From assembly GCA_050506795.1 (NCBI GenBank), contig JBJHCF010000017.1, positions 1-64,000 of the forward strand: 64,000 nucleotides of DNA, given 5' to 3'. This DNA comes from Opitutia bacterium (GTDB lineage: Bacteria; Verrucomicrobiota; Verrucomicrobiia; Opitutales; T3Sed10-336). The notes beneath the pieces were generated by a model that searched no databases, was not told the origin of the DNA, and saw nothing but the letters and a program-made list of their open reading frames with translations. A program made the translations under genes and the position numbers. Of this stretch, positions 5,928 to 23,068 are shown in pieces (position 1 is the first letter of the stretch; each line of letters begins with the position of its first letter).

Positions 5928-6968
5928 ATGGAAATCCTGCCGACAATGAAGGATGTCGCCGATCGGGCCGGAGTGCATCCCTCCACGGTCTCCCGGGTTT
6001 TGAGCAACAGTCCGCGGGTGACCGCCAAGACGAGGGAGAAAGTGAGGGCGGCGGTACAATCCCTTGGTTACCGGCCGAACCCTTACATCAGTATCCTGAT
6101 GCGCAACCGGCGTCAAAGGAAGACTCCGGAGGCCAAGGCAACCCTGGCCCTGCTGACGACCTTTCCATCCCGTGATGGCACGATCAAGGAGTTTCCTTTG
6201 CTCGAATCGGCCTTCGAGGCGGCTCGACGGCAGGCCCGGGTTCGAGGTTTCAATCTGGAGGAACTGTGGGCGCCATTGGACCGGATGTCCAGTGACCGCC
6301 TGAACCAGATTTTGCACACGCGGAGTATCAGCGGAATTCTGCTGGCTCCTTTTCCCCGCCCGATGGAAACTTTTGGATTGAACTGGGATCGGGTCGCGGT
6401 GGTGGCCTGGGGTTTGAGTTTGCTCGACCCCAGGGTGCACCGGGTGCGAAGCAACCACTTCGGCAGTTTGGCTATGGCGATGGACGAGTGTCACCGGCTG
6501 GGGTACCGCCGCGTCGGATTGGCTCTTCGCCAGGAGACCAATGTTCGGGCCGGAAAACGTTGGGAGGCGGCTTATTATTTAAAGCAACGCGAACTCGGCA
6601 TCGAAAACCCTCCGGCGGCTTATCTGGCTTCAAACTGGACTAAGGAACCCTTTCTCCGCTGGCTCGACCGGGAACGGCCGGATGCCATTCTTTGCTACAC
6701 CCGGTACGGCATGCCGTTCGAGTGGCTGGAATCCGAGGGGATCAAGGTGCCGAAAGAAGTCGGAGTGGCCAGCCTGGCCTGCTCTCAAGGGGGACAGGTT
6801 TCCGGGGTGCTCGAAAGCTGGGAGCTGCAGGCGGTCCGAGGGATCAATCTGGTCATCGACCTGCTGGCCGATAATGCCTTCGGGTTGCACGACTGTCCCA
6901 ATGTATCCGTCGTGGACGCCGGCTGGAATCCGGGAGAGACCTTGCTGCAGGTACCTGGCCGGGCTTGA
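5928..6968 (+). CDS. LacI-family transcriptional regulator (Opitutae type)
   Basis: [30 protein letters not shown] hinge, periplasmic-binding-protein-like C-terminus ([17 protein letters not shown]). Confidence 0.95.
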
Positions 6969-7011
6969 TAGGCCCTTCGCTCGAACCGTAAACACCGCGA
7001 CACCCTTTCGG

Positions 7012-7025
7012 TGCAACGATGTGAA
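7012..7025 (+). promoter_or_regulatory. Putative LacI-type operator upstream of secreted protein A
   Basis: TGCAACGATGTGAA in the AT-rich intergenic region after lacI. Confidence 0.6.
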
Positions 7026-7309
7026 TAGGAAATGCATTGAGGCCGTTCTTTAGAGGGTGTTTGCTTCAGTTCTGTCTTAGACCGGAATAACTCAAGAATT
7101 ATCCTCAATTTTTTGCGACTTTGAATGCAAAGATTCGGCATCCGCGTTATAGGGGCGGGAATTCGAATTTGGTTTCAAACAGGTCGCATTTTCCAAAACC
7201 AACCACCGATTCACCTCTTTGATGGAACACAGTGTCCGGCTGTCCTGGCGAGGAGCCGGGGCTCCCTGCTGCCAGACCTGATTCAATGAACTGCAACTTG
7301 CGCCTACAT

Positions 7310-10300
7310 ATGACTAAACGAACGAAATTCACAAACCCTAGTCCAAGCCTCCGGTTGGCAAGCATCGTTCTGGTGCTGTCATCATTGCTGTTGGCGATAC
7401 AGTCCCCTCTCGACGCCCAGCACAACGGCATAGAACCCGCGTTGGAGTTCAACAATCCGGGAGATCAGATTTTGATCCCGGGCGGGATCACGGTTCCGGC
7501 GGGAAGTGACTTCGAGTTTTCGGTATGGCTTTTCCCCAGATCCTGGGAGGGGAATAATCCGGGGTTGTGGCGCGCCGTTGGTAACGGAGACTTCTTCAAT
7601 ATTTTCCAGGGCGCCACGGGAAGACCGTGGATTCGATGGGGTCCCGGCAACAACATCCTGCAGCCTGCCGACGGATACAGTGTTCCGCTCAACGAGTGGA
7701 CCCAGGTGAGGTATGTCATCACTTCCGGCGAATCCGCTCAATTTTACACCCGCGGCCCGGGTGAAGAGAATTGGACATTGCGCCATTCGGCGAACCACTC
7801 TGTCGAGACCCCGGAGTTCACTTTTACGACCTACGGGTGGCAGTCGTCGCAGGCCGAACGGGTCGTGGGCATTCACAACCGGATTGAGTTTCGGATCGAT
7901 GGGGAGCCTATCATTCAGTGGGACCTGAACGAGGGTCTTGGCGCGTCGATCGCGGGTGACAGCTCCGGTAGTGGAAATGACGGAACGATTGAGGGAGCAC
8001 GCTGGGTCGATACCACCGGCGCCTCGTTGAGATTGGTCAGTGAGATGCCCTTTGATTTCCGTTTTGGCTCCGTGCGGCTGGTCAATGTCCGGGACGATAT
8101 CGGCTCGGGTCGGATCGAAGTTGGAGTGGCGGCGGCAGGGGAACTTCCGTTTACCGACGCGGACATCGCCATCACTTCGCTTCCGGCTGAGCTCGATGGC
8201 AAGGTTGCCTTGAGAACCGCGAACTCCGAGGCGAGCTGGCTCTTCGACGGAGCGGCGACCCCGATTACGGAGATCGAGTGGACTTATATAGACGCGGTTC
8301 CGGATTTGGACGCCGAGGGCAATCCCATACCGGGAGCGAATACCACTCTGGCCGATGGTTCGGGACAGTTTCAACCCGATTATGAGGCGGGGCCTCCGGG
8401 GGGCGATGGCTGGGGGCTCAGGGCTTTCGCCAATAATGGCACGATTCTCCAGGCGTTTGGAGGGGTTCTGGATAGCCGACCGGAGTTAAAAACCACCATC
8501 CGCGACCTCGAACCCGGTAAGGTCTACCCGGTGACGGCGACGTTTTGGCGGGATCCCTCCCTCTGGACGATTCGGGCCGGTTTGCGTTACGGCAACGACC
8601 TTTATGAGAACGAGTTGTTCAATCCGAATCACGGTTCGGCGTATGACGCCAACACGTTCGAGTGGACCGACAGCGTGTTGACGCTGGAAGGCAACCGTAC
8701 GATGTACGTTGCCTTCCTCGGCAACGCGGTCGCCGACGAGAACGGGGAAATCGATGTTTTCATACACGATGTTCCAACCGGCGATCAGGCCCAACGCACC
8801 TGGTACGACGGGGTTGCCGTCGGTTCCGCTCCGTTTATCAGGAGCGGTACCTACCTCGCGTTTGAGGTCGATCGGGATACGACCGTTTATGTGATCAACC
8901 ATCCTTCGTCGGAGCCGGCCTGGCTGACATCAAGTTTCTCCGCGACCGGCATGACCGTCGAAACCACCGCCGGGACGTTTGATGTCTGGGAGCGCGCGGT
9001 TAGCGCCCGCGATTTGATTGTCCTTCCGGGGAACGGCGGCGAGGTGACGGACCCGAATTACTGGGTGGTACTCGGCGAAGGGCAGGATGCCATTACAGAT
9101 GGGTTGGAGAACAACTTTATTGCCGCACCCGATGCGGACTGGAACATCGGAAGCTTTTCCTGGGGAGCGACAAGTGACCCGGAGGCGGAACCGCACACGG
9201 CCTCCTTGTCCGCCGAGGTCGGCGGCTTTAATCCCGAGAGCGGATTTCGCCTGACCTCGACCCTGCGGGTTCCCCGTTTGCAGCAGGAGGGTGCCAACTC
9301 CGTCGGGTTTCTCCTATTGGGCGACGAGGAGGGTGACGCCGCGGTTCGAGCGGAGTGGCTTCCCCGCATGAGCGGCGGAGGTTCCGTGATCCGGTTTGTC
9401 GACCCGGGCAGCAGCGCCGTTCTCGCGGAGGAATCCTGGACCGGCCTGGTGCCGACCGCTACCGACAATGATGTGGGTGTTTCCGCCGGCGCAAGTGAAG
9501 TCGTATTTTCCGCGGGCAGCCCGGTTTTCGCCGAGGACGAGGCAACCGTGGTATTCTCGGAGGACTTCGAAACCGGAGGAGCCGGTTGGACGACCGGAGC
9601 CAACAACGCGGCGGTTGATCAATGGGAGATCGGTGTGCCAACCAGCGGCCCCGGTAGTGCCTTCAGCGGAAGCAATGTGGCGGCGACGAATCTGGATGGT
9701 GTTTACACAACCGGGGGAGTCTTTGACACGATTGCATGGCTTCGTACTCCCGAGATCGATCTCCGGGAGTTCGGTTCGGCCACGCTGCGCTTTCACGAAT
9801 TCCTGGATGTCGACCAGTTTGAACTGGAGGTGGATGGGGAAATTCAAATCTTTCACTTCGCCACCGTGACGGTGTTGGAAGCCGGCACATTGAATGTGCT
9901 GGGGGAAGTGGCGATGTACAATGACGAGATATTCTCCTGGACCGAACGGGTTCTGGACCTGTCCGTTGGGGCGGGCAACCAGATCATTATCGAGTTCGGA
10001 TTGAACACTGACGAGATCGAGGACGATGTAGGCGACGGGTGGTATATCGACGCCGTCGAAGTGACGGCGACCGGAATCCAGATCCAAAGTTTGCCGGTTG
10101 AATTGGCTTCCGACGGAGTCCTCAATGGAGTTTCCACCACAAGTGCCGGAGTCGATGATAGCAGCGACAATTATCTCCAGTTCACCGTCGAAGATCGGGG
10201 CGTATCCGGCAACGAGGGTGTAAGTGTGTACGTCGCCTGGGACGTGCGCGCCTCAGGATTGGAGCCCGATTGGCTGACGCAAAACTTTCAACGTACGGAC

Positions 10301-11143
10301 CATTATGTCGGGGTCAGCGGTCCCGCAGTCTTTCATCGACTCTGGGCTCGCGAATACGCCAATGGAGCCGAGGTAACACTCGGAGGCGCTTCCGCCGCCG
10401 GACCCGGAGCGGCGTGGTTGCCCCCGGGCACCAACAATTACTTTGTATTGCTGGGTGATGCCCGGACGGGTTTGGATACGTTCTACACCATGGAAGCAAC
10501 CGGAGCCTGGAATGGCGCGGACGCGACGCTGTCATTTACGCTTACCGATGCCAACGGGTTCAGCCGAACGGTTCAGACGACCGTTTCCGGCGACTTTGAA
10601 GGACGGAGTGAATTCGGCTTGGCGGTGCGTCATCCGGACCCGTCCGGTGAAACCGCCGAATTCGCACCGATCTGGGAGATAGTCGGTCTGGCCATGGAGC
10701 CGTTCGAAGAGGTCATCATCGATTTCACCAACTTCCAGGAATGGCGTGAGGAACATTTCGAGGGACAACTTGATAACCTCGAAGTGAGCGGACCCAACGC
10801 GAATCCCGTCGGAGACGGAGTGCCCAATCTCTTGAAGTACGCCCTGGGCCTGTCGCCGTGGGTTCCGGCCGCTTCCGGGGATCTGCCGCGGATCGTTCCC
10901 GACGGAAACAACATCCTCATCCTGATTTACCAGGAGCGGACCGATATCGAGGATATCGCGTACGTGCCCCAGGTGTCGGAAGATCTTGGCGGCGGCGCCT
11001 GGAACGAAGGTGCGCCGCATGTGGTGGAGATATTCCGCGGCCCTGGTGATTCGGCGAACACACAGGAGGTCCGGGTTCGGGGAGAGGTTTCGCAGGGTGC
11101 GCAACGCGGCTTCCTGCGGTTGGAGGTAAGGTTGGTGGAATAG
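7310..11143 (+). CDS. Large acidic secreted multidomain protein A (LamG-like, unnamed beta modules, MAM/immune-inhibitor-A-like domain, C-terminal sorting-like domain)
   Basis: Signal peptide from ATG 7310; LamG-like signature (WDLNEGLG...GDSSGSGNDGTIEGARW); FSEDFETG...GWYIDAV domain; C-terminal GDGVPNLLKYALG...RGFLRLEV. Confidence 0.85.
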   Translation: MTKRTKFTNPSPSLRLASIVLVLSSLLLAIQSPLDAQHNGIEPALEFNNPGDQILIPGGITVPAGSDFEFSVWLFPRSWEGNNPGLWRAVGNGDFFNIFQGATGRPWIRWGPGNNILQPADGYSVPLNEWTQVRYVITSGESAQFYTRGPGEENWTLRHSANHSVETPEFTFTTYGWQSSQAERVVGIHNRIEFRIDGEPIIQWDLNEGLGASIAGDSSGSGNDGTIEGARWVDTTGASLRLVSEMPFDFRFGSVRLVNVRDDIGSGRIEVGVAAAGELPFTDADIAITSLPAELDGKVALRTANSEASWLFDGAATPITEIEWTYIDAVPDLDAEGNPIPGANTTLADGSGQFQPDYEAGPPGGDGWGLRAFANNGTILQAFGGVLDSRPELKTTIRDLEPGKVYPVTATFWRDPSLWTIRAGLRYGNDLYENELFNPNHGSAYDANTFEWTDSVLTLEGNRTMYVAFLGNAVADENGEIDVFIHDVPTGDQAQRTWYDGVAVGSAPFIRSGTYLAFEVDRDTTVYVINHPSSEPAWLTSSFSATGMTVETTAGTFDVWERAVSARDLIVLPGNGGEVTDPNYWVVLGEGQDAITDGLENNFIAAPDADWNIGSFSWGATSDPEAEPHTASLSAEVGGFNPESGFRLTSTLRVPRLQQEGANSVGFLLLGDEEGDAAVRAEWLPRMSGGGSVIRFVDPGSSAVLAEESWTGLVPTATDNDVGVSAGASEVVFSAGSPVFAEDEATVVFSEDFETGGAGWTTGANNAAVDQWEIGVPTSGPGSAFSGSNVAATNLDGVYTTGGVFDTIAWLRTPEIDLREFGSATLRFHEFLDVDQFELEVDGEIQIFHFATVTVLEAGTLNVLGEVAMYNDEIFSWTERVLDLSVGAGNQIIIEFGLNTDEIEDDVGDGWYIDAVEVTATGIQIQSLPVELASDGVLNGVSTTSAGVDDSSDNYLQFTVEDRGVSGNEGVSVYVAWDVRASGLEPDWLTQNFQRTDHYVGVSGPAVFHRLWAREYANGAEVTLGGASAAGPGAAWLPPGTNNYFVLLGDARTGLDTFYTMEATGAWNGADATLSFTLTDANGFSRTVQTTVSGDFEGRSEFGLAVRHPDPSGETAEFAPIWEIVGLAMEPFEEVIIDFTNFQEWREEHFEGQLDNLEVSGPNANPVGDGVPNLLKYALGLSPWVPAASGDLPRIVPDGNNILILIYQERTDIEDIAYVPQVSEDLGGGAWNEGAPHVVEIFRGPGDSANTQEVRVRGEVSQGAQRGFLRLEVRLVE

Positions 11144-11170
11144 CTATCAAGGTGATGTTTCACAGTAAAT

Positions 11171-11202
11171 GCCGGGGTTGTCTTGGGTAAGGTGGCCCCG
11201 GC
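11171..11202 (+). terminator. Stem-loop after gene A (no U-tract; terminator or mRNA stabiliser)
   Basis: GCCGGGGTTGTCTT-GGGT-AAGGTGGCCCCGGC pairs with G-U wobble. Confidence 0.45.
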
Positions 11203-11365
11203 CCATTACATCGGTATCTCCCGAAACACTATTCACGCGGCCTTTATACGGCAGATGAAAGACTTGATCCGTTTGTTAGTCATGAGCGTTTTTTATTGGT
11301 TTTTTAAGAGAAACTCCTAACCTGATTCCACTGGAACCCAAAAACCAAAGAACCAAAGGAAAAAT

Positions 11366-14300
11366 ATGAAAGACCTCACTGCACACACATTGGCAGGATT
11401 GCTGTTGGCGGCTTTGCTGGTGTTTGCTTCCGCGTTGTCAGCCCAGGAACCGATTACCTACGTTGACGCGACCCATGGGCCGGATGGAAACACGACGATG
11501 CTCGACGGCAGCGTATGGAACCCGCTGGAAGGCGATAGTGCGGAGGGTTTTTGGACAACTCGTCCCGGATTTGGCAACAACGGCCTCGTTTATCAGAATG
11601 CCGGCGGCGCCTTCATTCAGTCCAACGACGCCCATCCGATCGTCACCTCGGTAACCGGCCTTCCGGAAGGTCGGTATGATGTGTTCGTGTACTTCTGGGC
11701 GGACCCAAGTGCATGGCGGATCCGGGCCGCGCTGGCCGAAGGCGACGGCGATTGGCCGCTGTTTATCGCCCGAAGCGAAGGAGTTACTCAGTTTTACTTC
11801 GGCGATGATGCGACGGTCTTCAGTCCCTCCCTGGAAGACGACCCGTTTGCCGCGAGCGCTGACAATGATGGCCAGGGCATCATGATCGGGGAAGGCAACC
11901 GCCGCCTGTTCCAGGCGTATGTGGGGACGGTCTCCGGTACGGAGATCAATGTGTTTATTGATGATGGTCCGGCGCCCGGCCAGGCGCAACGTACGTGGTA
12001 TGATGGTATCGGATACGCGCCGGCGGCGCCGCGGGAGATGGACCTGCCCTTTGTCGCGGATTTCGGTTCGGTGAGGTTCATTGATATTATCGATCAGGTG
12101 ACCGAGGAGCCGTTTCAGCTCGAGCCCGTCACGGAGGGCGGTACGATGTTCGCGGGCAACGACAATACGGTAACCTCCCTTCCCGCCGAACTGGCGGGCA
12201 ACCTCGCGTTCAAGACCCTGAACCTGGACCAGGAAGTCGTTTTGCGATTCGGCGGCCCGGAAATCACCCGGGTGGAAACCAACGTACCGACCAATGACCT
12301 CGAGTATCCATTGTCGTTCGGGATCTGGGTCAACCGGTTCGATGAGCCGTTCGCCGGCAGAAACAAGTTATTCGGTTGGTTTGAGCCCGGTGCCACCAAC
12401 CGCGGGGAAGTGGAGATCGTGCCCGGTGAAAACCTGCTGAGGCTGGTTTGGTGGGGAGGAGGCCCCAACATCACCGTTTCTCCTCCGCCATCCACGAATG
12501 CCTGGGTGCATATCGGTGTGGTGATTACCCCCGAAACCGCCCGGATGTACGTGGACGGTGTTGAAGTCGGCGCGTTGGGCGAAGGGGTGGAGCCCTGGGG
12601 ACTGACCGCTGACACACACCTCTGGATCGGCGCCAGGAACGACGGGTCGGAAACCAGCCATACGGGGTGGATGAAGGACTGGGTCCTCTACGACGAGGAT
12701 ATCGGAGCCGAAGGCATGCAGCAGCTTGCCGACGGAGAAATTCCCGCGGGAGCGTTGCTGCAACACTTTCCCATGAACGAAGCCGAGGGAACCGTCGTTT
12801 TCGATCAGTCGGGCAACGACGTCCATGGCGACCTTATTGGACCCTTCGTCTGGGAAGATACGGTACCGGTCAGTGACGATCTGGAATTGGGGATCGGCTT
12901 TGTCACGGATCGCGACATCACCGTTTATCTGGCGATGGACGAAAACATGGATATCCCCCTCTGGATGCAGAATAGCTATACCAACAGCGGCCTCAAGGTC
13001 GAGACGACCGCCGGAGATTTCGACCTGTGGCAACGCGATTTCGGCGCCCGTGAGCAAGTATCGTTGCCGGCGGTCGTGAGAGGAGCGGGTGAGAATAACC
13101 GTTGGGTGATCCTGAGCGAGGGTCCGGACGCCATCACCGGAGATCCGGAGGGTAGCTTCCTGTCATTGCCGACGGGCGACTGGAGCACCGGGAGCTTTTT
13201 CCGGCAAGCGAGCAGTTTTCCTGATGATGAACTCCATGCCGCTTCCATGACCGCCGAGATGCGCAATTTTCTTCCCGAAAGCGGATTTCGCCTGAGTTCG
13301 ACCGTTCGCGTTCCCCGCTTGCAGGACGAGGGCGACAATGCCATCGGGTTTCACTTGCTGGGCGGGAACGGTCACGCGATTCGCGCGGAATGGCTTCCCC
13401 GTTTGAGCGGTGGGGATTCCGTAATTCGGTTTGTCGACATGAGCAACGACGAGGTTCTCGCACAGGAATCCTGGACCGGCCTGGCGCCGACCAGGACCGA
13501 CAATGAGGTCGGCGTCTCCGACGGGGCGTTTGAAACCGTCTATTCGGTAGGCACCCCGGTCTTCGTGGAGGATATGGAAAGTGTCGTCTTCTCGGAAGAC
13601 TTCGAAACCGGAGGAGCGGGATGGACGATGGGAAGCGACGCCCCGGCGGTCGATCAGTGGGAAATCGGAGTACCGACCAGCGGCCCCGGCAGTGCGTTTA
13701 GCGGCAACAACGTGGCCGCGACGAATCTCGATGGCGTTTACACGACCGGAGGGATTCAAAACACCATTGCCTGGCTGCGTTCTCCCGAGATCGATCTGCG
13801 TAACAACAGCGGTGCGACGCTTCGATTCCATGAGTATCTGGACGTGGACGAGCTTGAGATCAACGAAGAGCTCTTTCACTTCGTCACAGTGAGGGTGCTG
13901 GAAGCGGACAGCCTGAACCAGCTGGCGCAATTGGCGGTGTACAACACCGGAATTTCCTCGTGGACCGAACGCGTACTGGACCTTTCCGTTGCCGCGGGCA
14001 ACCGGGTCGTCCTTCAATTCGGGTTGCATACCGACGAGGTCGACGACGATGTCGGGGACGGATGGTACATCGACGCCGTCGAAGTGACCGCGACCGGAAA
14101 TCAAGTGGTGCGCATGCCGGAGAATCTGGCGCTTGACGGAACCCTGAATGGGATCTCCACCGAACGTGCCGGAGTTGACGACGACAGCGACAACCACCTC
14201 CAATTCACCGTGGAGGACCGCGGGGTATCCGGTAACGAAGGGGTTACCGTTTATGTCGCCTGGGATATTCGTGCCTCGAGTATGGAGCCTGACTGGCTGA

Positions 14301-15166
14301 CGCAGAACTTTACCCGCACCGACCATTTTGTGGGGGTCAGTAGTGCCGCGGGCTTCCATCGCCTCTGGGCGCGTGAGTACGCGGATGGCGAACAGGTGAC
14401 CCTTGGCGGCGCCTCCGCCGCCGGCCCCGGGTCGGCAGGACTGCCGGCCGGCACCAGTAACTACTTCGTGCTCTTGGGGGACGCCCGTTCGGGGCTGGAA
14501 ACGCTCTACACCCTGGAAGCGACGGGGAGTTGGGAGGACGACGAAGGGACGCTCACCTTTACGGTGACCGATGCCAATGGGGTGAGCCAATCCGTTCAGA
14601 CGATGGTCACCGGCGATATGGTGGGCCGAAACGAATTCGGTGTGGCGGTACGCCATCCCGACGCCAATGGTGGAACGGTCGAGTTTGCGCCGATCTGGGA
14701 TATCTTCAGTCTGGCCATGGAGGCCTACGAGGAGGTCATCATAGATCTTACCAACTTCCAGGAATGGCGTGAGGAACACTTCGAGGGACAACTCGATAAC
14801 CCGGAAGTGAGCGGACCCAACGCGGATCCGGCCGGAGACGGAGTGCCGAACCTGCTGAAATACGCGCTGGGCCTGTCGCCGTGGGTTCCCGCGGCTGCCG
14901 GGGATCTGCCCCGGATCGTTCCCGACGGAGATAACATCCTCATCCTGGTGTACCAGGAACGGATCGACATCGACGACATCGCTTACGTGCCACAGGTAGC
15001 GGAAGATCTTGACGGAGACGCCTGGAACGAAGGTACCCCGCACGTGGTGGAAATATTCCGCGGCCCGGGTGATTCGGCGAACACACAGGAGGTCCGGGTT
15101 CGGGGTCAGGTTTCGCAGGGTGCGCCACGCGGCTTCCTGCGGTTGGAAGTGAGGTTGGTGGAGTAA
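11366..15166 (+). CDS. Large acidic secreted multidomain protein B, paralogue of A
   Basis: Signal peptide (ALSA-QE); LamG signature (WVHIGVV...MYVDGVEV...HFPMNEAEGTVVFDQSGN); C-terminal ~680 aa collinear with A. Confidence 0.88.
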   Translation: MKDLTAHTLAGLLLAALLVFASALSAQEPITYVDATHGPDGNTTMLDGSVWNPLEGDSAEGFWTTRPGFGNNGLVYQNAGGAFIQSNDAHPIVTSVTGLPEGRYDVFVYFWADPSAWRIRAALAEGDGDWPLFIARSEGVTQFYFGDDATVFSPSLEDDPFAASADNDGQGIMIGEGNRRLFQAYVGTVSGTEINVFIDDGPAPGQAQRTWYDGIGYAPAAPREMDLPFVADFGSVRFIDIIDQVTEEPFQLEPVTEGGTMFAGNDNTVTSLPAELAGNLAFKTLNLDQEVVLRFGGPEITRVETNVPTNDLEYPLSFGIWVNRFDEPFAGRNKLFGWFEPGATNRGEVEIVPGENLLRLVWWGGGPNITVSPPPSTNAWVHIGVVITPETARMYVDGVEVGALGEGVEPWGLTADTHLWIGARNDGSETSHTGWMKDWVLYDEDIGAEGMQQLADGEIPAGALLQHFPMNEAEGTVVFDQSGNDVHGDLIGPFVWEDTVPVSDDLELGIGFVTDRDITVYLAMDENMDIPLWMQNSYTNSGLKVETTAGDFDLWQRDFGAREQVSLPAVVRGAGENNRWVILSEGPDAITGDPEGSFLSLPTGDWSTGSFFRQASSFPDDELHAASMTAEMRNFLPESGFRLSSTVRVPRLQDEGDNAIGFHLLGGNGHAIRAEWLPRLSGGDSVIRFVDMSNDEVLAQESWTGLAPTRTDNEVGVSDGAFETVYSVGTPVFVEDMESVVFSEDFETGGAGWTMGSDAPAVDQWEIGVPTSGPGSAFSGNNVAATNLDGVYTTGGIQNTIAWLRSPEIDLRNNSGATLRFHEYLDVDELEINEELFHFVTVRVLEADSLNQLAQLAVYNTGISSWTERVLDLSVAAGNRVVLQFGLHTDEVDDDVGDGWYIDAVEVTATGNQVVRMPENLALDGTLNGISTERAGVDDDSDNHLQFTVEDRGVSGNEGVTVYVAWDIRASSMEPDWLTQNFTRTDHFVGVSSAAGFHRLWAREYADGEQVTLGGASAAGPGSAGLPAGTSNYFVLLGDARSGLETLYTLEATGSWEDDEGTLTFTVTDANGVSQSVQTMVTGDMVGRNEFGVAVRHPDANGGTVEFAPIWDIFSLAMEAYEEVIIDLTNFQEWREEHFEGQLDNPEVSGPNADPAGDGVPNLLKYALGLSPWVPAAAGDLPRIVPDGDNILILVYQERIDIDDIAYVPQVAEDLDGDAWNEGTPHVVEIFRGPGDSANTQEVRVRGQVSQGAPRGFLRLEVRLVE

Positions 15167-15274
15167 ATCAGGTTTAGACCGCTCCTTTCATTCGGCGCCC
15201 GGGTCCCCGTCAGGAGGCCCGGGCGTTGCTGCGTTGCGAGCAGTGCCAATGATCGCCCGGACCTTTTTGATTTT

Positions 15275-15288
15275 GGCAACGATGTGCC
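15275..15288 (+). promoter_or_regulatory. Putative LacI-type operator upstream of PEP-CTERM gene
   Basis: GGCAACGATGTGCC; weaker ACCAACGATCAGTG at 15319-15332. Confidence 0.6.
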
Positions 15289-15496
15289 GGATTGATATGT
15301 CGACTTTTGGTTTTGAATACCAACGATCAGTGGTACTGCGAATTCACTAGGAGAGATTTCGATGCCCCATTGGGTAACCGCTGGAATCAGCAAACTCCCA
15401 GTTAAACATCGGTCCTCTGCGAAAGCTCAATCTGCATCGGCAGATCAAAAAAACGGTTCAGGTATCCATAAAAACAAAAAATCAGGCTTAAATTCT

Positions 15497-16222
15497 ATGA
15501 ATAGAATCAAACTAACAGGTTTGGGTGGGTGTTTGGCGGCATTGACGATTTTCGCTTATACCGCCTCGGCCCAGACATTCCTCCCCATCACCTATGTCGA
15601 CGCCACCCATGGCGCTGGCGGGAACACGACGATGATTGACGGCAGCGTGTGGAATGCGGCTACCAGTGCTACGGCAGGAGAATGGCTCGTTCGTGGCTTC
15701 GGCAATAACACGACCATCTATGAGAACGGCGGCAACGAAGTGGCAGAGACTGGGGACAACGCCCACCCTTTGCGGACCAATGTAAGCGGACTGAACGCGG
15801 ACACGTATGACGTATTCGTGTATTTCTGGTCGGATGTTCCCAATAATGGGTGGAGGATTCGGGCGTCGTTGACCGAGGGGGATGGCGATTGGCCGCTTTA
15901 CACTCCTGCGACTGAAGGGGTGGTGCAGTTCTACGATGGAGGGGATGCAACGATCTTCAGTTCTTCCCTGGCTGAAAACCCGTTTACCGGTGACGTTATG
16001 GTAGCGGAAGGCAATCGTCGTTTGTTCCAGGCCCATGTCGGAACGTTCACCGGCACCGAGTTCAGCGTCTTTATTAACGACGGTCCGTCTACCACCAACA
16101 ATGATCGCACATGGTACGACGGTGTAGGTTACTCGGTGGTTCCCGAGCCGAGCACGTATGCCTTGTTTGCAGGCTTGGGGGTCTTTGCCCTCATCGTACT
16201 TCGCAGACGGCTGCGCCGGTAG
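15497..16222 (+). CDS. PEP-CTERM (exosortase-sorted) surface protein
   Basis: Signal peptide from ATG 15497 (ASA-QT); C-terminal VPEPSTYA + TM helix + RRRLRR. Confidence 0.93.
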   Translation: MNRIKLTGLGGCLAALTIFAYTASAQTFLPITYVDATHGAGGNTTMIDGSVWNAATSATAGEWLVRGFGNNTTIYENGGNEVAETGDNAHPLRTNVSGLNADTYDVFVYFWSDVPNNGWRIRASLTEGDGDWPLYTPATEGVVQFYDGGDATIFSSSLAENPFTGDVMVAEGNRRLFQAHVGTFTGTEFSVFINDGPSTTNNDRTWYDGVGYSVVPEPSTYALFAGLGVFALIVLRRRLRR

Positions 16223-16245
16223 GTTGTAAAGCCGGTTGGTTTTTT

Positions 16246-16280
16246 CAGAGAGCCGTCGCCATTAAGGTGACGGCTCTCTG
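16246..16280. terminator. Strong hairpin downstream of PEP-CTERM gene
   Basis: CAGAGAGCCGTCGCC-ATTAA-GGTGACGGCTCTCTG. Confidence 0.7.
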
Positions 16281-16459
16281 CGTTTGCGCGGGGATGACAA
16301 ACGCCCTGGGATAGTTTGAGAGCCGGAATCGAAGTTGGGAATGCGTTTCTGCTCCCTGGAGGTCGGCGCTCCCGCACTGGCGGCCAGGCCCTCCAGGGGA
16401 ATGGCAGATGCGATTTGGCGATGCGCTTTGAATTCATCGCCTTAACCGTCCCGTCCGGG

Positions 16460-17380
16460 CTACGCGGGATTGGGTAACGCGGTTGGCCGTCGCGCGTCCC
16501 GGATCTGGGTGGCGGTGTAAAGGATTAAGCCGGCCCAGATGAGAGCGAAGGTGATGGCGTGGGTTGTTGTGAAGGTCTCTTTGAACCAGAAGACCCCGAT
16601 CAGGAGTTTGATCGTCGGGGCGCAGTACTGCAGAAACCCGATCATGGACAGGGGAATCCGTTTGGTGGCCAGAGCGAAAAGGAGCAGAGGAAGGATGGTG
16701 GCCAGTCCGCCCCCGATGAGGAGGAGGCCGGTTCGGTCCGCGGAAAACGAGCCGGCGCCGGATTGGTGAATCCAGGCCAGGTAGACGCCGGCGATGGGCA
16801 GAACCAGGAGCGTTTCCAGGGTCAGACCCACCACCGGGCCGAGACGGCTGATTTTCTTGAAAAGACCATAGGCACCGAACGAAAAAGCGAGGCTCAGGGC
16901 GATCCAGGGAACCGACCCGAAATTGACGGCCATGTAGGCGACGCCGGAACAGGCGAATGCGATGGCCAACCACTGAACCCTGGAAAAACGCTCCTGCAGA
17001 AAGATCATACCGAGCAGGATGCTCAGCAGCGGATTGATATAATACCCCAGGCTCGCCTCGACGATGTGTTCGTTGGTGACCGCCCAAATGTAGACTCCCC
17101 AATTGACCGAAACCGCGATGCCGGCCGCGAATACTCCCAACGCTTTGCGGTAATCCCGCGCGAGAGACCGAAACTCCTGGAAAAAGTGCCCGTAACCGTT
17201 TAAAAAACCGAGCAACACTCCCAGCAACACCGCGGACCAAACGATTCGATGGGCGAGTACTTCCCATGCGGGAACACCTTCGATCGTTTTCCAGTACAAC
17301 GGCAGAAAGCCCCACAGCATATACGCCAGCGTGGCAAAGACGATCCCGGTCCTTTTCTGGTTAACGATAACGCCCGACAC
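16460..17380 (-). CDS. rarD: EamA/DMT transporter RarD
   Basis: LWGFLPLYWK, EVLAHRIVWS, EASLGYYINPL, IGFLQYCAPT motifs. Confidence 0.92.
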   Translation of the reverse strand: MSGVIVNQKRTGIVFATLAYMLWGFLPLYWKTIEGVPAWEVLAHRIVWSAVLLGVLLGFLNGYGHFFQEFRSLARDYRKALGVFAAGIAVSVNWGVYIWAVTNEHIVEASLGYYINPLLSILLGMIFLQERFSRVQWLAIAFACSGVAYMAVNFGSVPWIALSLAFSFGAYGLFKKISRLGPVVGLTLETLLVLPIAGVYLAWIHQSGAGSFSADRTGLLLIGGGLATILPLLLFALATKRIPLSMIGFLQYCAPTIKLLIGVFWFKETFTTTHAITFALIWAGLILYTATQIRDARRPTALPNPA

Positions 17381-17474
17381 GGTACCGGTTAAATCAGACC
17401 TATCCCGGCGGCGCGAGGATCTTGAGGGATTAAATCCAACGACGCTCGCGCTGGCCGAATTCTCTGCCTAACCC

Positions 17475-17577
17475 GAATGGCATTCGGTTAAGCGAAAAGT
17501 AGAACACGCTTCCAGCGTGTTGCCTCAGGCTGGAAGCCTAAGCTACTTTAACCGACCGCCTTAACTGAGCGCCATTC
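17475..17577. mobile_element. ~103-bp MITE with IS4-like terminal inverted repeats and an internal REP doublet
   Basis: TIRs GAATGGCATTCGGTTAAG (17475-17492) and CTTAACTGAGCGCCATTC (17560-17577); flanking direct repeats TGCCTAACCC / CGCCTAACCC; internal GTAG...CTAC element 17499-17546. Confidence 0.75.
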
Positions 17578-17587
17578 CGCCTAACCC

Positions 17588-20500
17588 TTAATCAACTTTC
17601 ACAATTCGCAACCGCAGGAAGCGCCGCGCTGCGGATTCGGAGAAGGGGACGGAATCGGCGATCCTCATCCAGTCGCCGTCGGTGTTTTCATCCAGGTGGA
17701 TGCGTGAATCGTAGAGAACGTCATTCCACTCATCGAGATCCGCCGAGGCTTCCACAATGTACGCGATATCCGTCTTGGCCGGATCGCGCCGGAAGCGTAG
17801 CGCGGCAGTTTCGCCATCAGTCTCGAAAGCCGGGAGTTGAACTTCTCCCGTCGGGTTGTCGCTTGCGTCGAGTGCGTAGCGCAGGAGAAGCGGAAGGCCC
17901 TCGCCGTGCGGATCCTGGTAAGGATCGGCCTCTTCCGGCGACAAATCCGGGTATTTCCGGCTCAGCCATAGGCTGAAGGACTCGGGCGGATGCGCTCCGC
18001 TGGCGATGAGGACATCGTCCAGGCGAATCTCAGCCCGCGGGCCGCTGGTTACGGATTGATGGTAGTAACGCCATTGCAGTTGGAGGTCCGGTTGGTCCTC
18101 CAGCTCGGACGGGAGCCGCACCGGACCGAAAGCGACCTCGTGACCCGCGACCTCGTTCCTCACGTACTCGATCGGGTCCATTGCCGGCAGATCGTCCCAT
18201 TCGGCGTCGGAACCAACCCGGTACTGAAGGCGCAACGCATAGACCCGGCTGTTGGGCGTAACGGTACCGGCCACCCAGGACACGTCGATATCGCTGACGC
18301 CGGTGGTGTCCAGCGCGAGCAACGCCGAGCCGACATCACGGCCGCGTCCGGTATTGATGAAACTGATACCGGCTTCGCCGAGCCCGTTGATTCGCGTGCG
18401 GCTGCTCGCGGCGTAGGGAAAGGCAACATTCCCGGGTTCAGCCGCGTCTTCCTCGGGTATGTGATAGGCGTAAAGGAGTTCCGTTTCCAGGTCGGGATCG
18501 TCGGTATCGCTTTGCAGAAACAGCATGTGTCCCGGATAGGTTCCCGCGGGTTCGTCCGGAGACCAGAAGTTGAAGGAAAAATTACCCTCTGTCAGGGAAA
18601 ACGGTTCCGGGTACACCAGGATGTTGAATGATGCCGTTACCGCCGGATTCACTTCGTCGTCCGCCTGCACCGTTACGGTTACTCCGCCGGCGCGTAGGCC
18701 CGACAGGGTCAGGAAAGCACCGTCCAGGGTAGGCGAAAGCACCGTCAGGTCGGTGGATGTTGCCTGGAAATTCAAGGTCGCTTCATTCGGATGGGTAAAC
18801 CAATCCTCCAGGTTGAGAATCGTCGAATCCCCGGCGGCAGTCAGCGCGATCCGTTCTGGAATCGCTTCTTCATTGACCACCGGCGGCAGCACGGTGCCCG
18901 GAAGCCCGACTCCGGACAAGGTCACATCATCGAAGCGATTATTTCCTAAAGTGCCGCCCTCTCCCTGCTCGAAGGTGATGCGCACCGCGAAATCCGGGTT
19001 GTCGGCCACTCCGGAAGTTTCAGTGAAATCGAACCTTCGGAACTGGGGCGCCAAATCGAAAACGGTGTAGGTGTCGTATTCATTCCAGGTTTGGCCATCG
19101 AGGGTGTACGACAGCTTTTGCAGGCCGGCGCCTTGTCCGGAGCGCCGGGTCAGAAACTCGAGCACGATCTCATCGTACCCGGTGGTGGGAAGGGAAAACG
19201 TGAGCTCGGAGCCCAGGGGATAGTTCACTCGCAGATGTCGCGTTTCGAAATCACCCCCGGTGTTGGAAATCGCCTCTGTCGTCGGCCCGGGCTGCAGACT
19301 CAGCATTCCGCCTCCCAAGGTGAACGATGGGTCGAACACGGTCGCGGCGTCCTCAAAATCCCACTCGTGTAAGGCGATGGGAAGCTCGGCCAGCGGGATC
19401 GGCTCGAACACGGCCGTCACCTGCGTGTTCTGGGTCATCGTCAATGAGACAACGGGATCGGTGGAGAAGAAGTCATGCTCCGGGATTTCACCCAGGACCA
19501 CCCAGTAGTTCAAGTCGTTGAAATCACCCCCATTCCCGGGCAGAACGATCAACTCGCCGGCATTAACCGCTTGTTCCCAGACGTCGAACGTTCCCGCGGT
19601 GGTTTCCACGGTCATGGTCGTGGGGGAAAAATCGGAGGTCAACCAGTCGGGCTCGGAGGAGGGATGGTTGATGACGTAGACTGTCGTATTCGCGTCCACC
19701 TCAAAGGCGAGGTAAGGACCGCTTTGTTTGATGGGTTCGGATCCCACGGCGACCCCGTCATACCATGTGCGCCTGCTTTGGCTGCTGGTCGGGACGTCAT
19801 GAATAAAGACGTCGATTTCACCGTTTTCATCGGCGACGGCATTGCCCAGGAAAGCCGCCAGCATGATCCGATTGCCTTCCGCCGTCAGAATCGAGGTGGT
19901 CCAATTGAGCGTGTCGGCCTCGACCACATCGTTGTGATTTGGGTCGTACAGTTCGTTCTCGCGCTGGTCGTTGCCGTAGCTCAATCCGGCCCGAAGCGTC
20001 CAGGGGTTTCCATCGCGCCAGAACAGGGCGGTGACCGGATAGGCTGTGCCGGCCTCGAGATCGCGAATGGTCGTTTTCAGTTCCCGGGTGTTCTCCGGTC
20101 CATTCGATCCCCCTCCGAAGGCCTGAAGGATCGAACCACCATTGCCAAAGGTCGCTCTGACGACCCACTCATCGGCTCCAGAAGGCGACCCCGCAGGGGG
20201 TTGAAACTCCCCGGAGCCGTCAGCCAGCGTCGTGTTCGCTCCGGGCAAAGGGATGCCGGAGGTATCGCGATCGGGAACGGCGTCGGTATAACTCCATTCG
20301 ATCTCCGCAGTCGGTGTCGCCTCTCCTTCGTCGAGCCAGGTGGCGTCCGAATTGGCGGTTCTGAGGACAATTCTCCCCGCCAATTCCGGCGGAAGCGAGG
20401 TGATCGTGATTTCCTCGTCGGTGAACGGCCGCTCGCCTACCTCTGCCAAACCGATTTCGAATTGGCCTTGCCCGATATCGTCACGGATGCTCACCTGCCC

Positions 20501-22960
20501 GGCCCCGATCAAACCGTCCACGCTCCAACCCGCCAGCCGGTAGCCTGCCCGCGGGATGGCCTCGAGCTCGATCGGGACTCCACTGAAATACAGGCCCGTC
20601 CAGGGGTAGGGATCGCTTGCCACACCCGGCGTGCCTTCGTGGATTTCCATTGTGTTGACACGAACATGGCCCCGTGCGGAATCCGATACGTTCACCGTCA
20701 CCTCGGCGTCTCCGGAAAGCCCGAACCGGCTCCGAATGCGCTGCCGCTGGCGCGTGGGCTGATCGTAGGCGTAGTTGATCATATCGCTCAGGTTGCGGGT
20801 GTGCCGGGAATCGTGCGGCTCCCACGGGTAGGCATGGAGGAAGTAATCAATGCTCCACCGGTGTTGGTGATCGGCGAGGTCGGGCCCAAGCCTCGCGTAC
20901 TCGTTCAGAACCAGGGACTCCACCCGTTCCGGAGCGAACGTGATGTTGATGAGATCGGCGAAGCGATTGATGAAGCGGTTTCTGAATTCGTGATTATCCA
21001 GGAGGTTGCGGAAAATATGTACATTGTTGAAGGCGGTGCCCAGGTAGTCGCTCGTGTTCAGGCTGTATTCGAAATCCTGGGTGAAGATCCGCCACCTTCC
21101 GTCCCCGAATTTATCATCCACCGGTTCCCGTGCCCGCCAGAAGCCGTTTTCAAAGTGGGTGTTACCGAAGTAGATGTTCGGAATGAGGTGGTCGATGTAG
21201 CTGCGGATGCACAGCATTTCCTCCGCCTGGCGGTAGAGGTTGTCGTTGGCCATGTCCTGGTTGAGGATAAACGACCGCATGGAATTGAAAACGTTCATGT
21301 CGCCCGATACCCCCGTCTCCAGGCTGTGATTGTCGTTCCATCCGGTGGACCAGGTGATGATGACGTTGTCGGGATCGAGATGGAAATGGTTCGCCAGGTG
21401 ATGTTGATCGAAACGGTCGCGCACGGCCGTCAGCCCCCAGTATTCGCCGTTGATGAACTGCACCACGTTCCGTAGGCGAGAGACGCCCTCAAACACCTCC
21501 CCCATCAATTTATGCACGGTCCATTCATTCATATAGGGCCCCCCCGATCCGGGGCCGCGAACGTGAATCCGTTTGAACACATCGTTCTCTGGATTGGTGG
21601 CGAACGGCAGATCCCAGGGATAAATCCGGTGCTGGAATACATTGACGCTGTCGTAGCGACTGCGGGCGTAGAGGCGCAGGCTTTTGGAACGCATTCCCCG
21701 GCTGGCGTTGCCATGAATCCGGAATCCCATTCCCTGGTTGATGGCGGCCCCGTCGCCGTCGGGCTCGAAGAACTCGAGCCGCGCCGGGTATTCCCATTGA
21801 TCTCCTCGACGCTGCCAGTTGTAGGGCGCTTGCCAGTGTTCCGTACCGCCGGCGTTAGCGTCCGGGTTGTTCGTGCGCCAGGTATCAAAATCGCTTCCCG
21901 CTGTGTAGAGACCCGTTTCGTAGCCAAAGAGCAGATCCTCCTGAACCTGGAGGCTCATGATGGGATGATCGAACGGGTTTCCGTCCGGATCGACAAAGTA
22001 GGTGTTGCCCCTTGCATACGACGGCAAGTTCCCCGGCTTGTAGGCGCGGGCCTGCACCACCGTCCCTTTGTACACCGGGGAATCGGGTAAATAGTAAGGG
22101 TCCGGGTGCCAGGTCGAAGAAATCTGCGCTAGCTTGTCGGGTTCCCCCGACCGGTCGACGACCGGGATGGGGCCGCTGTACAGGTGACTTCGGTAGGAAT
22201 GCTCCAGGAACTCGCCGAACGGGTCCCCCGGCCGGTGAGGCCAGTTGTTTTTGTATTGATAGGTGGTGCCTTCGAGATTGTCGATGTCGGGCGTCGAACC
22301 GTCCAGAGTATAGATAATGATGGCGTCCGGATCGGGATGCGACAGCGTCAGCTCGAAATTCGCATCGTGGAATCCCCCCTGATGGGAAAACGTGACCGGC
22401 TCCAGTACGGAGGCGTAGGTCGTTGTGTTGTTGGGACCACCGGGGGTGGGCTCATCGAAGAAAAACCAGGTATCACCCGCGCCGGGCGCCCGGCCGATGG
22501 AAATGTCGTTTGGCACCAGGGTCGACGGGAGGTAATCGACCAGGACTCCCTGGGGATCGGTCAACAGAACGTGCTCCCCGGTCAGACTGATGCGGAAATC
22601 GGTGTGGAGCGTTCCGTCCCCTTCGCCCCCGGTCCCCGGGCGGTCCTTCCCTGACGCCCAAATCAGCAGGTATTCCCCGGCTCCCAGGGTGGTTCCGGCC
22701 GGCAGGGTCCAGCGAAAGGGGTGTTGCGGATCATTCGAAAGCCCCCAGCCGGACAGATCAACTTCGGAGGCCCCGTGGTTGTAAAGTTCGATCCAATCCT
22801 CGTAATCGCCGTCCTCGTCCGCGATCGTCGTGCTGTTCGCAGCCATGATCTCGTTTAAACTGACGGTGCCGTCGGCGGGGGAGATCCAGAAAAGCAGCAG
22901 GAGGCAGGTCGTTATAACGCGCGCGGATACGACCCGGTAGGCGAGGGTGTTCATCTTCAA
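17588..22960 (-). CDS. CotH-kinase-family multidomain secreted protein (lamin-tail domain, Fn3/chitobiase-like domain, CotH, inserted cassette, beta-sandwich domains, C-terminal sorting-like domain)
   Basis: Signal peptide; LTD (LNEIMAAN...DWIELYN...PTPGGPN); IIYTLDGSTP; GFRIHGNASR...KSLRLYAR, FINGEYWGL, DGRWR; C-terminal RRFLRLRIV. Confidence 0.88.
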   Translation of the reverse strand: MKMNTLAYRVVSARVITTCLLLLFWISPADGTVSLNEIMAANSTTIADEDGDYEDWIELYNHGASEVDLSGWGLSNDPQHPFRWTLPAGTTLGAGEYLLIWASGKDRPGTGGEGDGTLHTDFRISLTGEHVLLTDPQGVLVDYLPSTLVPNDISIGRAPGAGDTWFFFDEPTPGGPNNTTTYASVLEPVTFSHQGGFHDANFELTLSHPDPDAIIIYTLDGSTPDIDNLEGTTYQYKNNWPHRPGDPFGEFLEHSYRSHLYSGPIPVVDRSGEPDKLAQISSTWHPDPYYLPDSPVYKGTVVQARAYKPGNLPSYARGNTYFVDPDGNPFDHPIMSLQVQEDLLFGYETGLYTAGSDFDTWRTNNPDANAGGTEHWQAPYNWQRRGDQWEYPARLEFFEPDGDGAAINQGMGFRIHGNASRGMRSKSLRLYARSRYDSVNVFQHRIYPWDLPFATNPENDVFKRIHVRGPGSGGPYMNEWTVHKLMGEVFEGVSRLRNVVQFINGEYWGLTAVRDRFDQHHLANHFHLDPDNVIITWSTGWNDNHSLETGVSGDMNVFNSMRSFILNQDMANDNLYRQAEEMLCIRSYIDHLIPNIYFGNTHFENGFWRAREPVDDKFGDGRWRIFTQDFEYSLNTSDYLGTAFNNVHIFRNLLDNHEFRNRFINRFADLINITFAPERVESLVLNEYARLGPDLADHQHRWSIDYFLHAYPWEPHDSRHTRNLSDMINYAYDQPTRQRQRIRSRFGLSGDAEVTVNVSDSARGHVRVNTMEIHEGTPGVASDPYPWTGLYFSGVPIELEAIPRAGYRLAGWSVDGLIGAGQVSIRDDIGQGQFEIGLAEVGERPFTDEEITITSLPPELAGRIVLRTANSDATWLDEGEATPTAEIEWSYTDAVPDRDTSGIPLPGANTTLADGSGEFQPPAGSPSGADEWVVRATFGNGGSILQAFGGGSNGPENTRELKTTIRDLEAGTAYPVTALFWRDGNPWTLRAGLSYGNDQRENELYDPNHNDVVEADTLNWTTSILTAEGNRIMLAAFLGNAVADENGEIDVFIHDVPTSSQSRRTWYDGVAVGSEPIKQSGPYLAFEVDANTTVYVINHPSSEPDWLTSDFSPTTMTVETTAGTFDVWEQAVNAGELIVLPGNGGDFNDLNYWVVLGEIPEHDFFSTDPVVSLTMTQNTQVTAVFEPIPLAELPIALHEWDFEDAATVFDPSFTLGGGMLSLQPGPTTEAISNTGGDFETRHLRVNYPLGSELTFSLPTTGYDEIVLEFLTRRSGQGAGLQKLSYTLDGQTWNEYDTYTVFDLAPQFRRFDFTETSGVADNPDFAVRITFEQGEGGTLGNNRFDDVTLSGVGLPGTVLPPVVNEEAIPERIALTAAGDSTILNLEDWFTHPNEATLNFQATSTDLTVLSPTLDGAFLTLSGLRAGGVTVTVQADDEVNPAVTASFNILVYPEPFSLTEGNFSFNFWSPDEPAGTYPGHMLFLQSDTDDPDLETELLYAYHIPEEDAAEPGNVAFPYAASSRTRINGLGEAGISFINTGRGRDVGSALLALDTTGVSDIDVSWVAGTVTPNSRVYALRLQYRVGSDAEWDDLPAMDPIEYVRNEVAGHEVAFGPVRLPSELEDQPDLQLQWRYYHQSVTSGPRAEIRLDDVLIASGAHPPESFSLWLSRKYPDLSPEEADPYQDPHGEGLPLLLRYALDASDNPTGEVQLPAFETDGETAALRFRRDPAKTDIAYIVEASADLDEWNDVLYDSRIHLDENTDGDWMRIADSVPFSESAARRFLRLRIVKVD

Positions 22961-23012
22961 ACGTATTGCAAATCATTGCGATCTCGGCAAGCCCGCCGCC
23001 GCAATAAATCCA

Positions 23013-23026
23013 TGAATATCGTTGCA
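23013..23026 (-). promoter_or_regulatory. Putative degenerate LacI-type operator upstream of CotH gene
   Basis: Minus strand reads TGCAACGATATTCA, about 50 nt before the start codon. Confidence 0.5.
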
Positions 23027-23068
23027 CACCCGGCCCGGAAACGGGGTGGGATTTTGGGAGGATACCCT

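Follow-up and report, generated by a model that had tools for sequence, protein, structure and literature searches.

Genes A and B lie in tandem on the forward strand of a 64,000-nucleotide stretch of an Opitutia bacterium genome (assembly GCA_050506795.1, contig JBJHCF010000017.1, positions 1 to 64,000; hereafter the window). We conclude, with a probability of about 0.7, that both encode secreted, non-catalytic arrays of beta-sandwich domains in which a small domain, here called X, carries a guest domain in a surface loop, and that the mirror-image layout of the two proteins arose by replacement of a cassette. A preliminary description of this DNA had explained the same layout by a reciprocal domain swap between the two paralogues. 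Below, a guest is written in brackets after its host, and three further domains are called Y, Z and M. Amino acid (aa) positions in A are counted from window position 7232, and those in B from 11366. The features of the two genes are as follows.

7310..11143, + strand: gene A, 1277 aa, ATG at 7310; signal-like N-terminus, LamG-A, X1[Y], Z[X2[M]], C-terminal tail domain
7421..8020, + strand: A head, LamG-like (lineage LamG-A), PF13385 match below cut-off
8063..8233, + strand: A X1 N-half, X profile positions 13-53; predicted local distance difference test (pLDDT) of the block 71-97
8234..8842 (core 8270-8830), + strand: A guest in slot 2, domain Y with linkers, predicted galactose-binding-like jelly roll
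8843..9082, + strand: A X1 C-half, X profile 57-140; superposes with the N-half on 6HPD 848-990
9089..9466, + strand: A Z N-half, predicted legume-lectin/ConA-like fold
9467..9544, + strand: probable first strands of A X2, placed by position; equivalent stretch in M-less relatives
9545..10069, + strand: A domain M, MAM/cleaved-adhesin-like by predicted-structure match
10070..10462, + strand: A X2 core, slot 2 empty, X profile 30-140, expectation value (E) 4e-20
10463..10726, + strand: A Z C-half, from the model
10745..11140, + strand: A C-terminal tail domain, 89% identical to B's
11366..15166, + strand: gene B, 1266 aa; signal-like N-terminus, Y, X1[LamG-B], Z[X2[M]], tail domain; mosaic
11444..12025, + strand: B head, a Y domain of the stand-alone lineage, with 57% identity to gene C and 58% to the P0160 head
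12062..12232, + strand: B X1 N-half; left cassette border near aa 230
12233..12880, + strand: B guest in slot 2, LamG-B (PF13385)
12881..13123, + strand: B X1 C-half; right cassette border near aa 590
13130..14749 (M 13580-14092, X2 core 14093-14485), + strand: B Z[X2[M]] block, sharing 70% identity with that of A
14768..15163, + strand: B C-terminal tail domain, the shared tail domain

The start of A agrees with that of a database protein, P0158, which is also 1277 aa long. Both N-termini are hydrophobic on inspection, and A and B are likely secreted. The motifs named in the preliminary description all stand where it had placed them, at aa 315 (TSLPAEL), 329 (TANSE), 351 (TYIDA), 522 (RTWYDG) and 544 (FEVDRD) in A, and at aa 31 (TYVDA), 209 (RTWYDG), 270 (TSLPAEL), 284 (TLNLD) and 512 (FVTDRD) in B. 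The layout it gave likewise holds, with a LamG-like head and Y in the slot in A, and a Y head and LamG in the slot in B. The guest of B exceeds the Pfam cut-off for Laminin_G_3 (PF13385; E 2.3e-11, 44.5 bits against 27.6), whereas the head of A stays below it (17.7 bits, E 0.004).

Domain X is split at the same point in both proteins. With a profile built from 172 rows of uninterrupted X, 4 of which belong to the A/B family, A was matched at profile positions 13-53 (E 7e-5) and at 57-140 (2e-15); the matches in B were at 8-54 (8e-3) and 62-136 (1e-10). The halves are collinear and the gap falls between 53-54 and 57-62, and consequently A and B are broken at the same loop, as had been proposed. 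Between the SLP motif and the X C-half lie 226 aa in A but 239 in B, as compared with 22-34 where relatives have this slot empty. Since the loop consists of 10-13 variable residues, the guest junction cannot be placed to the residue. Outside the family, X is as a rule whole. A profile search found 1443 representatives at E up to 0.001, and among the best 150 of these, a list that favours multi-copy proteins, the 136 proteins from outside the A/B family contained 367 copies, 351 of them whole, 9 cut by the protein end and 7 partial. Within the family, the X1 of P0012 is 62-80% identical to that of A and has no guest in either slot.

Structure prediction joins the two halves. An AlphaFold2 model of A aa 268-622 was built from 30 alignment rows, 6 of which covered Y; distant Y rows were excluded because uninterrupted X and stand-alone Y rows misaligned together. 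Mean pLDDT was 75.9, with the X blocks mostly at 85-98 and Y weaker. Across the guest, the X halves (model residues 14..353) superpose on 6HPD 848-990 (Z-score 19.1, root-mean-square deviation (rmsd) 1.9 Å, 136 positions) and on 6HZE 733-872 (Z-score 11.4), the next unrelated row being at 8.6. The X sequence profile independently matched 6HPD 896-978 (E 2.4e-4), and a Foldseek search with the X[Y] model, which ranked 6HPD second at rmsd 18.6, was uninformative, as expected of a split domain. Modelled as two separate chains, the halves scored 0.75 against 0.02 for the best control, with contacts agreeing at 93% or more between runs and partner pLDDT of at least 80; the mark applied to this score is reached by 116 of 157 solved complexes and by 2 of 215 mismatched pairs. 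The X halves are therefore predicted to close into one domain, and the models do not show the independent folding that the preliminary description had named as refuting its view.

The same arrangement recurs in the second half of the protein. The model built for A aa 618-1173 used 22 rows and has a pLDDT of 82.5; in it, the Z halves (range 5-545) close around 340 inserted residues and resemble the legume lectin 1CIW (Z-score 16.2) and 4B1M from family 66 of the carbohydrate-binding modules (CBMs; 15.6), while M (155-330) resembles meprin MAM 4GWM (18.8) and gingipain K1 4ITC (14.7). Domain Z, too, is thus predicted to be one domain, formed around X2 and M. Uninterrupted Z is found in relatives, in which empty Z, Z[M], Z[X2] and Z[X2[M]] are all seen. 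A profile test of the N-part of X2 gave the right register at a probability of 0.5%, and one control window scored higher. As X and Z each close into one domain in these predictions, their guests would hang off the array as side branches. We consider the nested split-domain architecture of A and B very probably correct.

X has two slots, slot 1 preceding the SLP motif and slot 2 following the T.N motif. We compared 26 non-redundant proteins from this genome (A, B and the paralogues C20, C22 and C34), from its relatives and from databases, having left out duplicates (P0006, P0013, P0158, P0164, P0165, L039), the truncated L038, fragments (P0054, P0080, L043) and three CotH-type proteins. In X1, slot 2 is filled in 15 of the 26, slot 1 in 9, neither in 2 (P0012 and P0020) and both in none. 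The 24 X1 guests fall into 10 clusters at 40% identity and the heads into 17. Several relatives hold LamG in either slot, and the LamG guests of several lineages are less than 31% identical to each other. The proposal that X is a scaffold with a permissive loop, giving combinatorial surface proteins, agrees with the one-domain model and with the numbers of guest and head clusters, whereas binding and surface location are what we infer. The slot of the preliminary description, our slot 2, is real, but its single-slot picture missed the second slot, the second copy of X, the nested tail, and the X[Y] of gene D (below). Of 301 genomes of the order, 14 contain the X core, and split or nested copies were found only in the genome's own family, where 4 of 11 other genomes have them. 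A metagenome scan gave one family locus and a scan of named genomes three; the relatives carrying such loci are Opitutales/Opitutia genome bins.

Further arrangements were seen in single proteins. That none of the 26 has both X1 slots filled may reflect steric or folding exclusion, or mere ancestry. In P0012, whose X1 is empty, a fourth level of nesting is present at aa 646-862, where a permuted copy of its own head lies inside M. The sisters P0020 and P0022 (100/99-100) share one LamG lineage (58% identical), which is the head of P0020 and the slot-1 guest of P0022, and the empty X1 of P0020 is shortened at slot 1. Tandem Z occurs in L004, L005, L007 and L127, where M lies directly in Z without X and a later Z seemingly holds LamG. 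In P0029 (aa 202-342), P0026 (aa 117-256) and P0141, X is circularly permuted, with the C-part before the N-part and the cut one strand past slot 2. In P0044, an unrelated protein of 3888 aa, 140-185 residues interrupt X at a third place (profile position ~80), at aa 2319-2631 and 3261-3498.

It is very unlikely that A and B acquired their mirror-image layouts by trading domains with each other. The two proteins are 70% identical over the whole stretch that starts at A aa 542, and A-B DNA homology begins at 13178 in B and 9137 in A, but their heads align only crosswise and weakly. The Y domains of A and B are 28-32% identical; in the Y tree, slot Y stands apart from head and stand-alone Y, and sisterhood of A-Y and B-Y is rejected (approximately unbiased test, p-AU 4e-14). 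LamG-A and LamG-B share a 24-bit match over 69 residues. The relatives of LamG-A are known only as heads (P0017, P0161, P0162), it is 54-60% identical to the heads of P0017 and P0161, which have the same layout as A, and within its own genome it matches only itself; the relatives of LamG-B are known only as guests (C20, P0005; 55-59% identical). The layout is accordingly reciprocal by domain class only.

B itself is composite. Along its length the closest relative is P0160 to aa 230 (58%), C20/P0005 over aa 231-590, and A/P0160 from aa 591, about where DNA homology between A and B sets in; P0160, a Y-X[Y] gene, combines B's head and B's type of tail with A's X[Y]. In the X1 tree B groups with C20/P0005 (98/99) and its placement in A's clade is rejected (p-AU 1e-5), whereas in the tail tree it groups with A, P0012, P0160 and P0162 (100/100) and placement with C20/P0005 is rejected (7e-5); the constrained clades of both trees were named after the identities had been seen, which weakens these p values and counts against the reading drawn from them. 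The two trees agree for P0017, P0161 and P0162, which already have A's layout. At the level of sequence, these comparisons show B to be a three-part mosaic, and its exact layout was found in no other sequence among the relatives and databases compared. Because the X1 C-half of B is 75% identical to that of P0005 and 39% to that of A, yet the tail groups with A, two borders are needed. The simplest history, which we hold to be probable, is that X[LamG] took the place of X[Y] once, with two borders, in an ancestor of B that resembled P0160. Judged by these identities, host and guest travel together as a cassette, as X[Y] also does between the A and D lineages.

A literal exchange of head and slot domains between A and B, for instance by one crossover between Y-X[Y] and LamG-X[LamG], would give the mirror-image classes directly, and genes of both parental types exist (P0160, and P0008 for the latter). 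A single crossover predicts, however, that the X1 C-half shares the ancestry of its own tail, and in B the C-half is P0005-like and the tail A-like; as A's layout also pre-exists in other proteins, the Y sisterhood is rejected and the LamG pair barely aligns, we regard this history as highly improbable and reject the swap as originally stated. Still less credible is an assembly chimera between paralogues. The assembly comprises 82 contigs, a 2-kb tail of 77% identity is common to A and B, and the layout of B was seen in no other sequence, but no exact DNA match between A and B exceeds 38 bases, that one lying within the tail, and single contigs of a run labelled X1 span 7200-11074 and 11053-15097, unbroken over each head. 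Those contigs are not independent evidence, since that run is possibly the source of the data. The B cassette, at 64% DNA identity to C20, is too distant for a mis-join, and we rejected the chimera as far as it could be tested. Separately, A and B are ~75% identical at the DNA level over the body but 88-91% identical over the tail domain (10745-11140 and 14768-15163), which includes the 38-base match and may reflect recent gene conversion.

As to where guests come from, the own head was the best head match for 7 of 25 inserts (C22, P0008, G016a-c, P0163 and P0012, in ~6 lineages; 45-69% identical), the second for 2 and the fourth for 1. The insert of P0012 is its own head in circularly permuted order (residues 44-202, then 1-46; 69% and 65% identical), and that of G016c is probably permuted too (weak, E 0.04). 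The guest of C22 is found elsewhere only in its own head and in an adjacent BNR-repeat gene (52%). The head of C34 is 79% identical to an adjacent PEP-CTERM gene and that of L081 54% to an adjacent beta-helix gene, while no neighbour sharing a variable domain was found at C20, P0005 and the three G016 proteins. The paralogue C22 lies at 1-13500 of L002, in an apparent sialic-acid locus with a NanM-SSF fusion, a DHDPS-family lyase and a pair of BNR-repeat proteins. The domain of C22 that is repeated three times is unmatched in Pfam and is a candidate for a new binding module.

Partial duplication followed by deletion is a route to domain insertion, and the sources seen for the guests are consistent with its acting locally. 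On this route, a domain from the own head or from a neighbouring gene would rarely be copied in frame into the host, and only insertions in tolerant loops would survive, foldability being the filter. More commonly, heads and whole X[guest] cassettes would be exchanged between paralogues by recombination in conserved flanks; in the ancestor of B, a whole X[LamG] cassette from a paralogous lineage would have replaced X[Y], giving the mirror-image layout. One might instead suppose that this Opitutales clade has a dedicated or favoured process, for example through a circular DNA intermediate, that raised the insertion rate at these loops and copies domains of the same gene or locus, sometimes permuted, into X, Z and M, producing branched, locus-matched glycan-binding arrays. 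Ten guest lineages at two loops against near-absent splitting elsewhere, the permuted inserts of P0012 and probably G016c, and the service of Z, M and a Flg_new_2 repeat as hosts all speak for such a process. No recombinase or mobile-element family was found, though, in the 46 neighbouring proteins scanned (the rest of the genome was not searched), and no junction repeats at the cassette borders in 6900-23100, so that a dedicated mechanism is not supported; tandem duplication also gives permuted copies, and the copies are old. We consider such a process unlikely.

The function of the arrays is approached through folds and neighbours. Neither Pfam nor NCBIfam gave a catalytic or curated CBM family in A or B, and NCBIfam no family at all. 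Pfam held no credible family for X, Y or the guest of C22 (best match for X, DUF2491, E 0.017). In the ESM Atlas, X and Y fall only in unnamed clusters (0.93-0.94), and Y below 0.9 leads to galactose-binding-like and malectin domains. Against the sequences of solved structures Y gave nothing credible, and its model matched CBM35, Nictaba and Eph domains at Z-scores of 7-8.6. The neighbourhoods of family genes contain sulfatases, BNR repeats, NanM/SSF/DHDPS genes, UxaE and pectate-lyase-like helices, and haloalkaliphilic Opitutales degrade acidic polysaccharides according to an excerpted account that does not mention A/B-type proteins (PMC13274419). By analogy with the ConA-like, galactose-binding-like and MAM folds, with the solved relatives of X and with the gene neighbourhoods, glycan capture at the cell surface is slightly favoured as the role. 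The arrays would capture, multivalently, the acidic or sulfated glycans handled by each locus, with the variable domains setting specificity.

They could also be structural or adhesive surface proteins, that is spacers, protein-binding adhesins or CotH-linked envelope parts whose guests are passengers without glycan specificity. The likeness of M to meprin MAM and gingipain adhesin domains would suit that role, as would the same X[Y] in gene D with its CotH kinase-like domain and the lack of a catalytic or curated CBM match in A and B. Where visible, however, variable domains are shared with neighbouring glycan-acting genes, the two solved relatives of X are appended to glycoside hydrolases (GH), and the invariant motifs of Y are kept across lineages; a purely structural role thus seems rather unlikely. 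Several points weigh against the overall interpretation of split hosts, copied guests and glycan capture. Protein binding and a spacer role are likewise known for LamG, MAM and ConA-like folds. The model of X and its two-chain pass may reflect likeness to the solved 6HPD domain, and the alignments included uninterrupted X rows. Y is modelled at moderate confidence (many blocks at pLDDT 40-70), and its fold matches, all below a Z-score of 9, may reflect only a common arrangement. That M lies inside X2, and not before it, is suggested by position, through the equivalent stretch in M-less relatives. Fifteen of the 25 inserts, those of A and B included, have no own-head match, the insertion step has left no surviving DNA trace, with copies only 45-69% identical, and the LamG-LamG self-matches could be due to gene conversion rather than de novo insertion.

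Around A and B, the window holds these further features.

5928..6968, + strand: LacI-family regulator upstream of A, preceded by Gfo/Idh/MocA, DUF6807, enolase-superfamily and Nramp-like genes
15497..16222 (open frame from 15362; likely start 15497), + strand: gene C, stand-alone Y with PEP-CTERM
17588..22960, - strand: gene D, LTD, CotH kinase-like domain, Flg_new_2 repeat split by X[Y], tail domain
19484..20509 (Y guest ~19724-20341), - strand: X[Y] cassette in gene D

Y occurs in just four genes of the genome, A, B, C and D, all at this locus, while the C-terminal tail domain of A and B occurs in ~75 open frames of the genome. The PEP-CTERM of gene C is above cut-off (PF07589, 24.5 against 20.7; TIGR02595, 21.8 against 16). 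The Flg_new_2 repeat of D is contiguous in three paralogues, on C7, C8 and C26, and split by X[Y] in D. The X[Y] of D shares 68.5% aa identity with that of A over 337 residues (70% at the DNA level), the Y guests being 66% identical. An EamA gene separates C from D. At 4250-12367 of L040, from a genome of the same genus in which the A/B heads are unassembled, D, EamA, C and, at the contig end, a B-like tail stand in the same order, and the locus is in that sense conserved. Between the EamA gene and D, at 17502-17548, lies a short multicopy repeat matched by several other contigs of run X1. Promoter and terminator scans gave results at chance level.

We found no description of the A/B family or of domain X in open-licence papers. 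The C-terminal domains of the GH2 enzyme 6HPD (848-990) and of the GH138 enzyme BP0997 (6HZE, 733-872) have the fold of X, but there the domain is whole and appended to an enzyme, whereas in A and B it is split, present twice, and accompanied by no catalytic domain that we detected. The sialidase of Vibrio cholerae is an enzyme with an inserted lectin domain. CE20 esterases, in the part of their description cited here, likewise have an ancillary domain inserted in an enzyme (PMC12313940). In both, as in A and B, a binding-type beta domain lies within a loop of another domain, but they have one fixed guest in a catalytic host, and the X family a varying guest in a non-catalytic one. Gingipain/haemagglutinin arrays of cleaved-adhesin and MAM domains are modular and reshuffled between paralogues, with the domains strung end to end; M shares their fold but is nested inside Z, with or without X2.

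Excerpts of a survey of domain insertions (PMC13114784) put the share of multidomain proteins with insertions at 20% and give nesting to six levels for the RNA polymerase of cyanobacteria. The A1-B-A2 form defined there, a discontinuous host with a whole guest, which may nest as A1-B1-C-B2-A2, is the form seen here: X is whole in homologues, its halves make one domain by prediction, and the guest is independent, Y standing alone in gene C and in relatives and LamG being a Pfam domain in its own right (PF13385). Like the versatile families of those excerpts, X is both host and guest. The trend they report is for guests smaller than their hosts (PMC13114784), and X does the opposite, a host of 140 aa taking guests of 175-270 aa. 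Relative to the cases in the excerpts (PMC13114784), the X family has ten guest lineages at two loops in one bacterial clade, its cassette moves whole, and its guests are often copied from the same gene or locus. Insertion and nesting are thus already known, and what is new is the density of independent guests in one host.

Since domain insertions are mostly single events of ancient date, how they originate is difficult to investigate. Here at least ten guest lineages occupy a small host, which is found in empty, single and nested states together with self-copies, a permuted copy and, in B, a recombinant with sharp borders, so that the duplication-deletion route and the rules of loop tolerance become testable by comparison and at the bench. 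X is a widespread domain with no Pfam family, and as a natural scaffold with two slots it could interest protein engineers. Should the dedicated or favoured copy-and-insert process prove true, the family would be a natural domain-insertion library with its own mechanism, and if the guests match the substrates of their loci, they would point to new families of binding modules, among them Y and the guest of C22.

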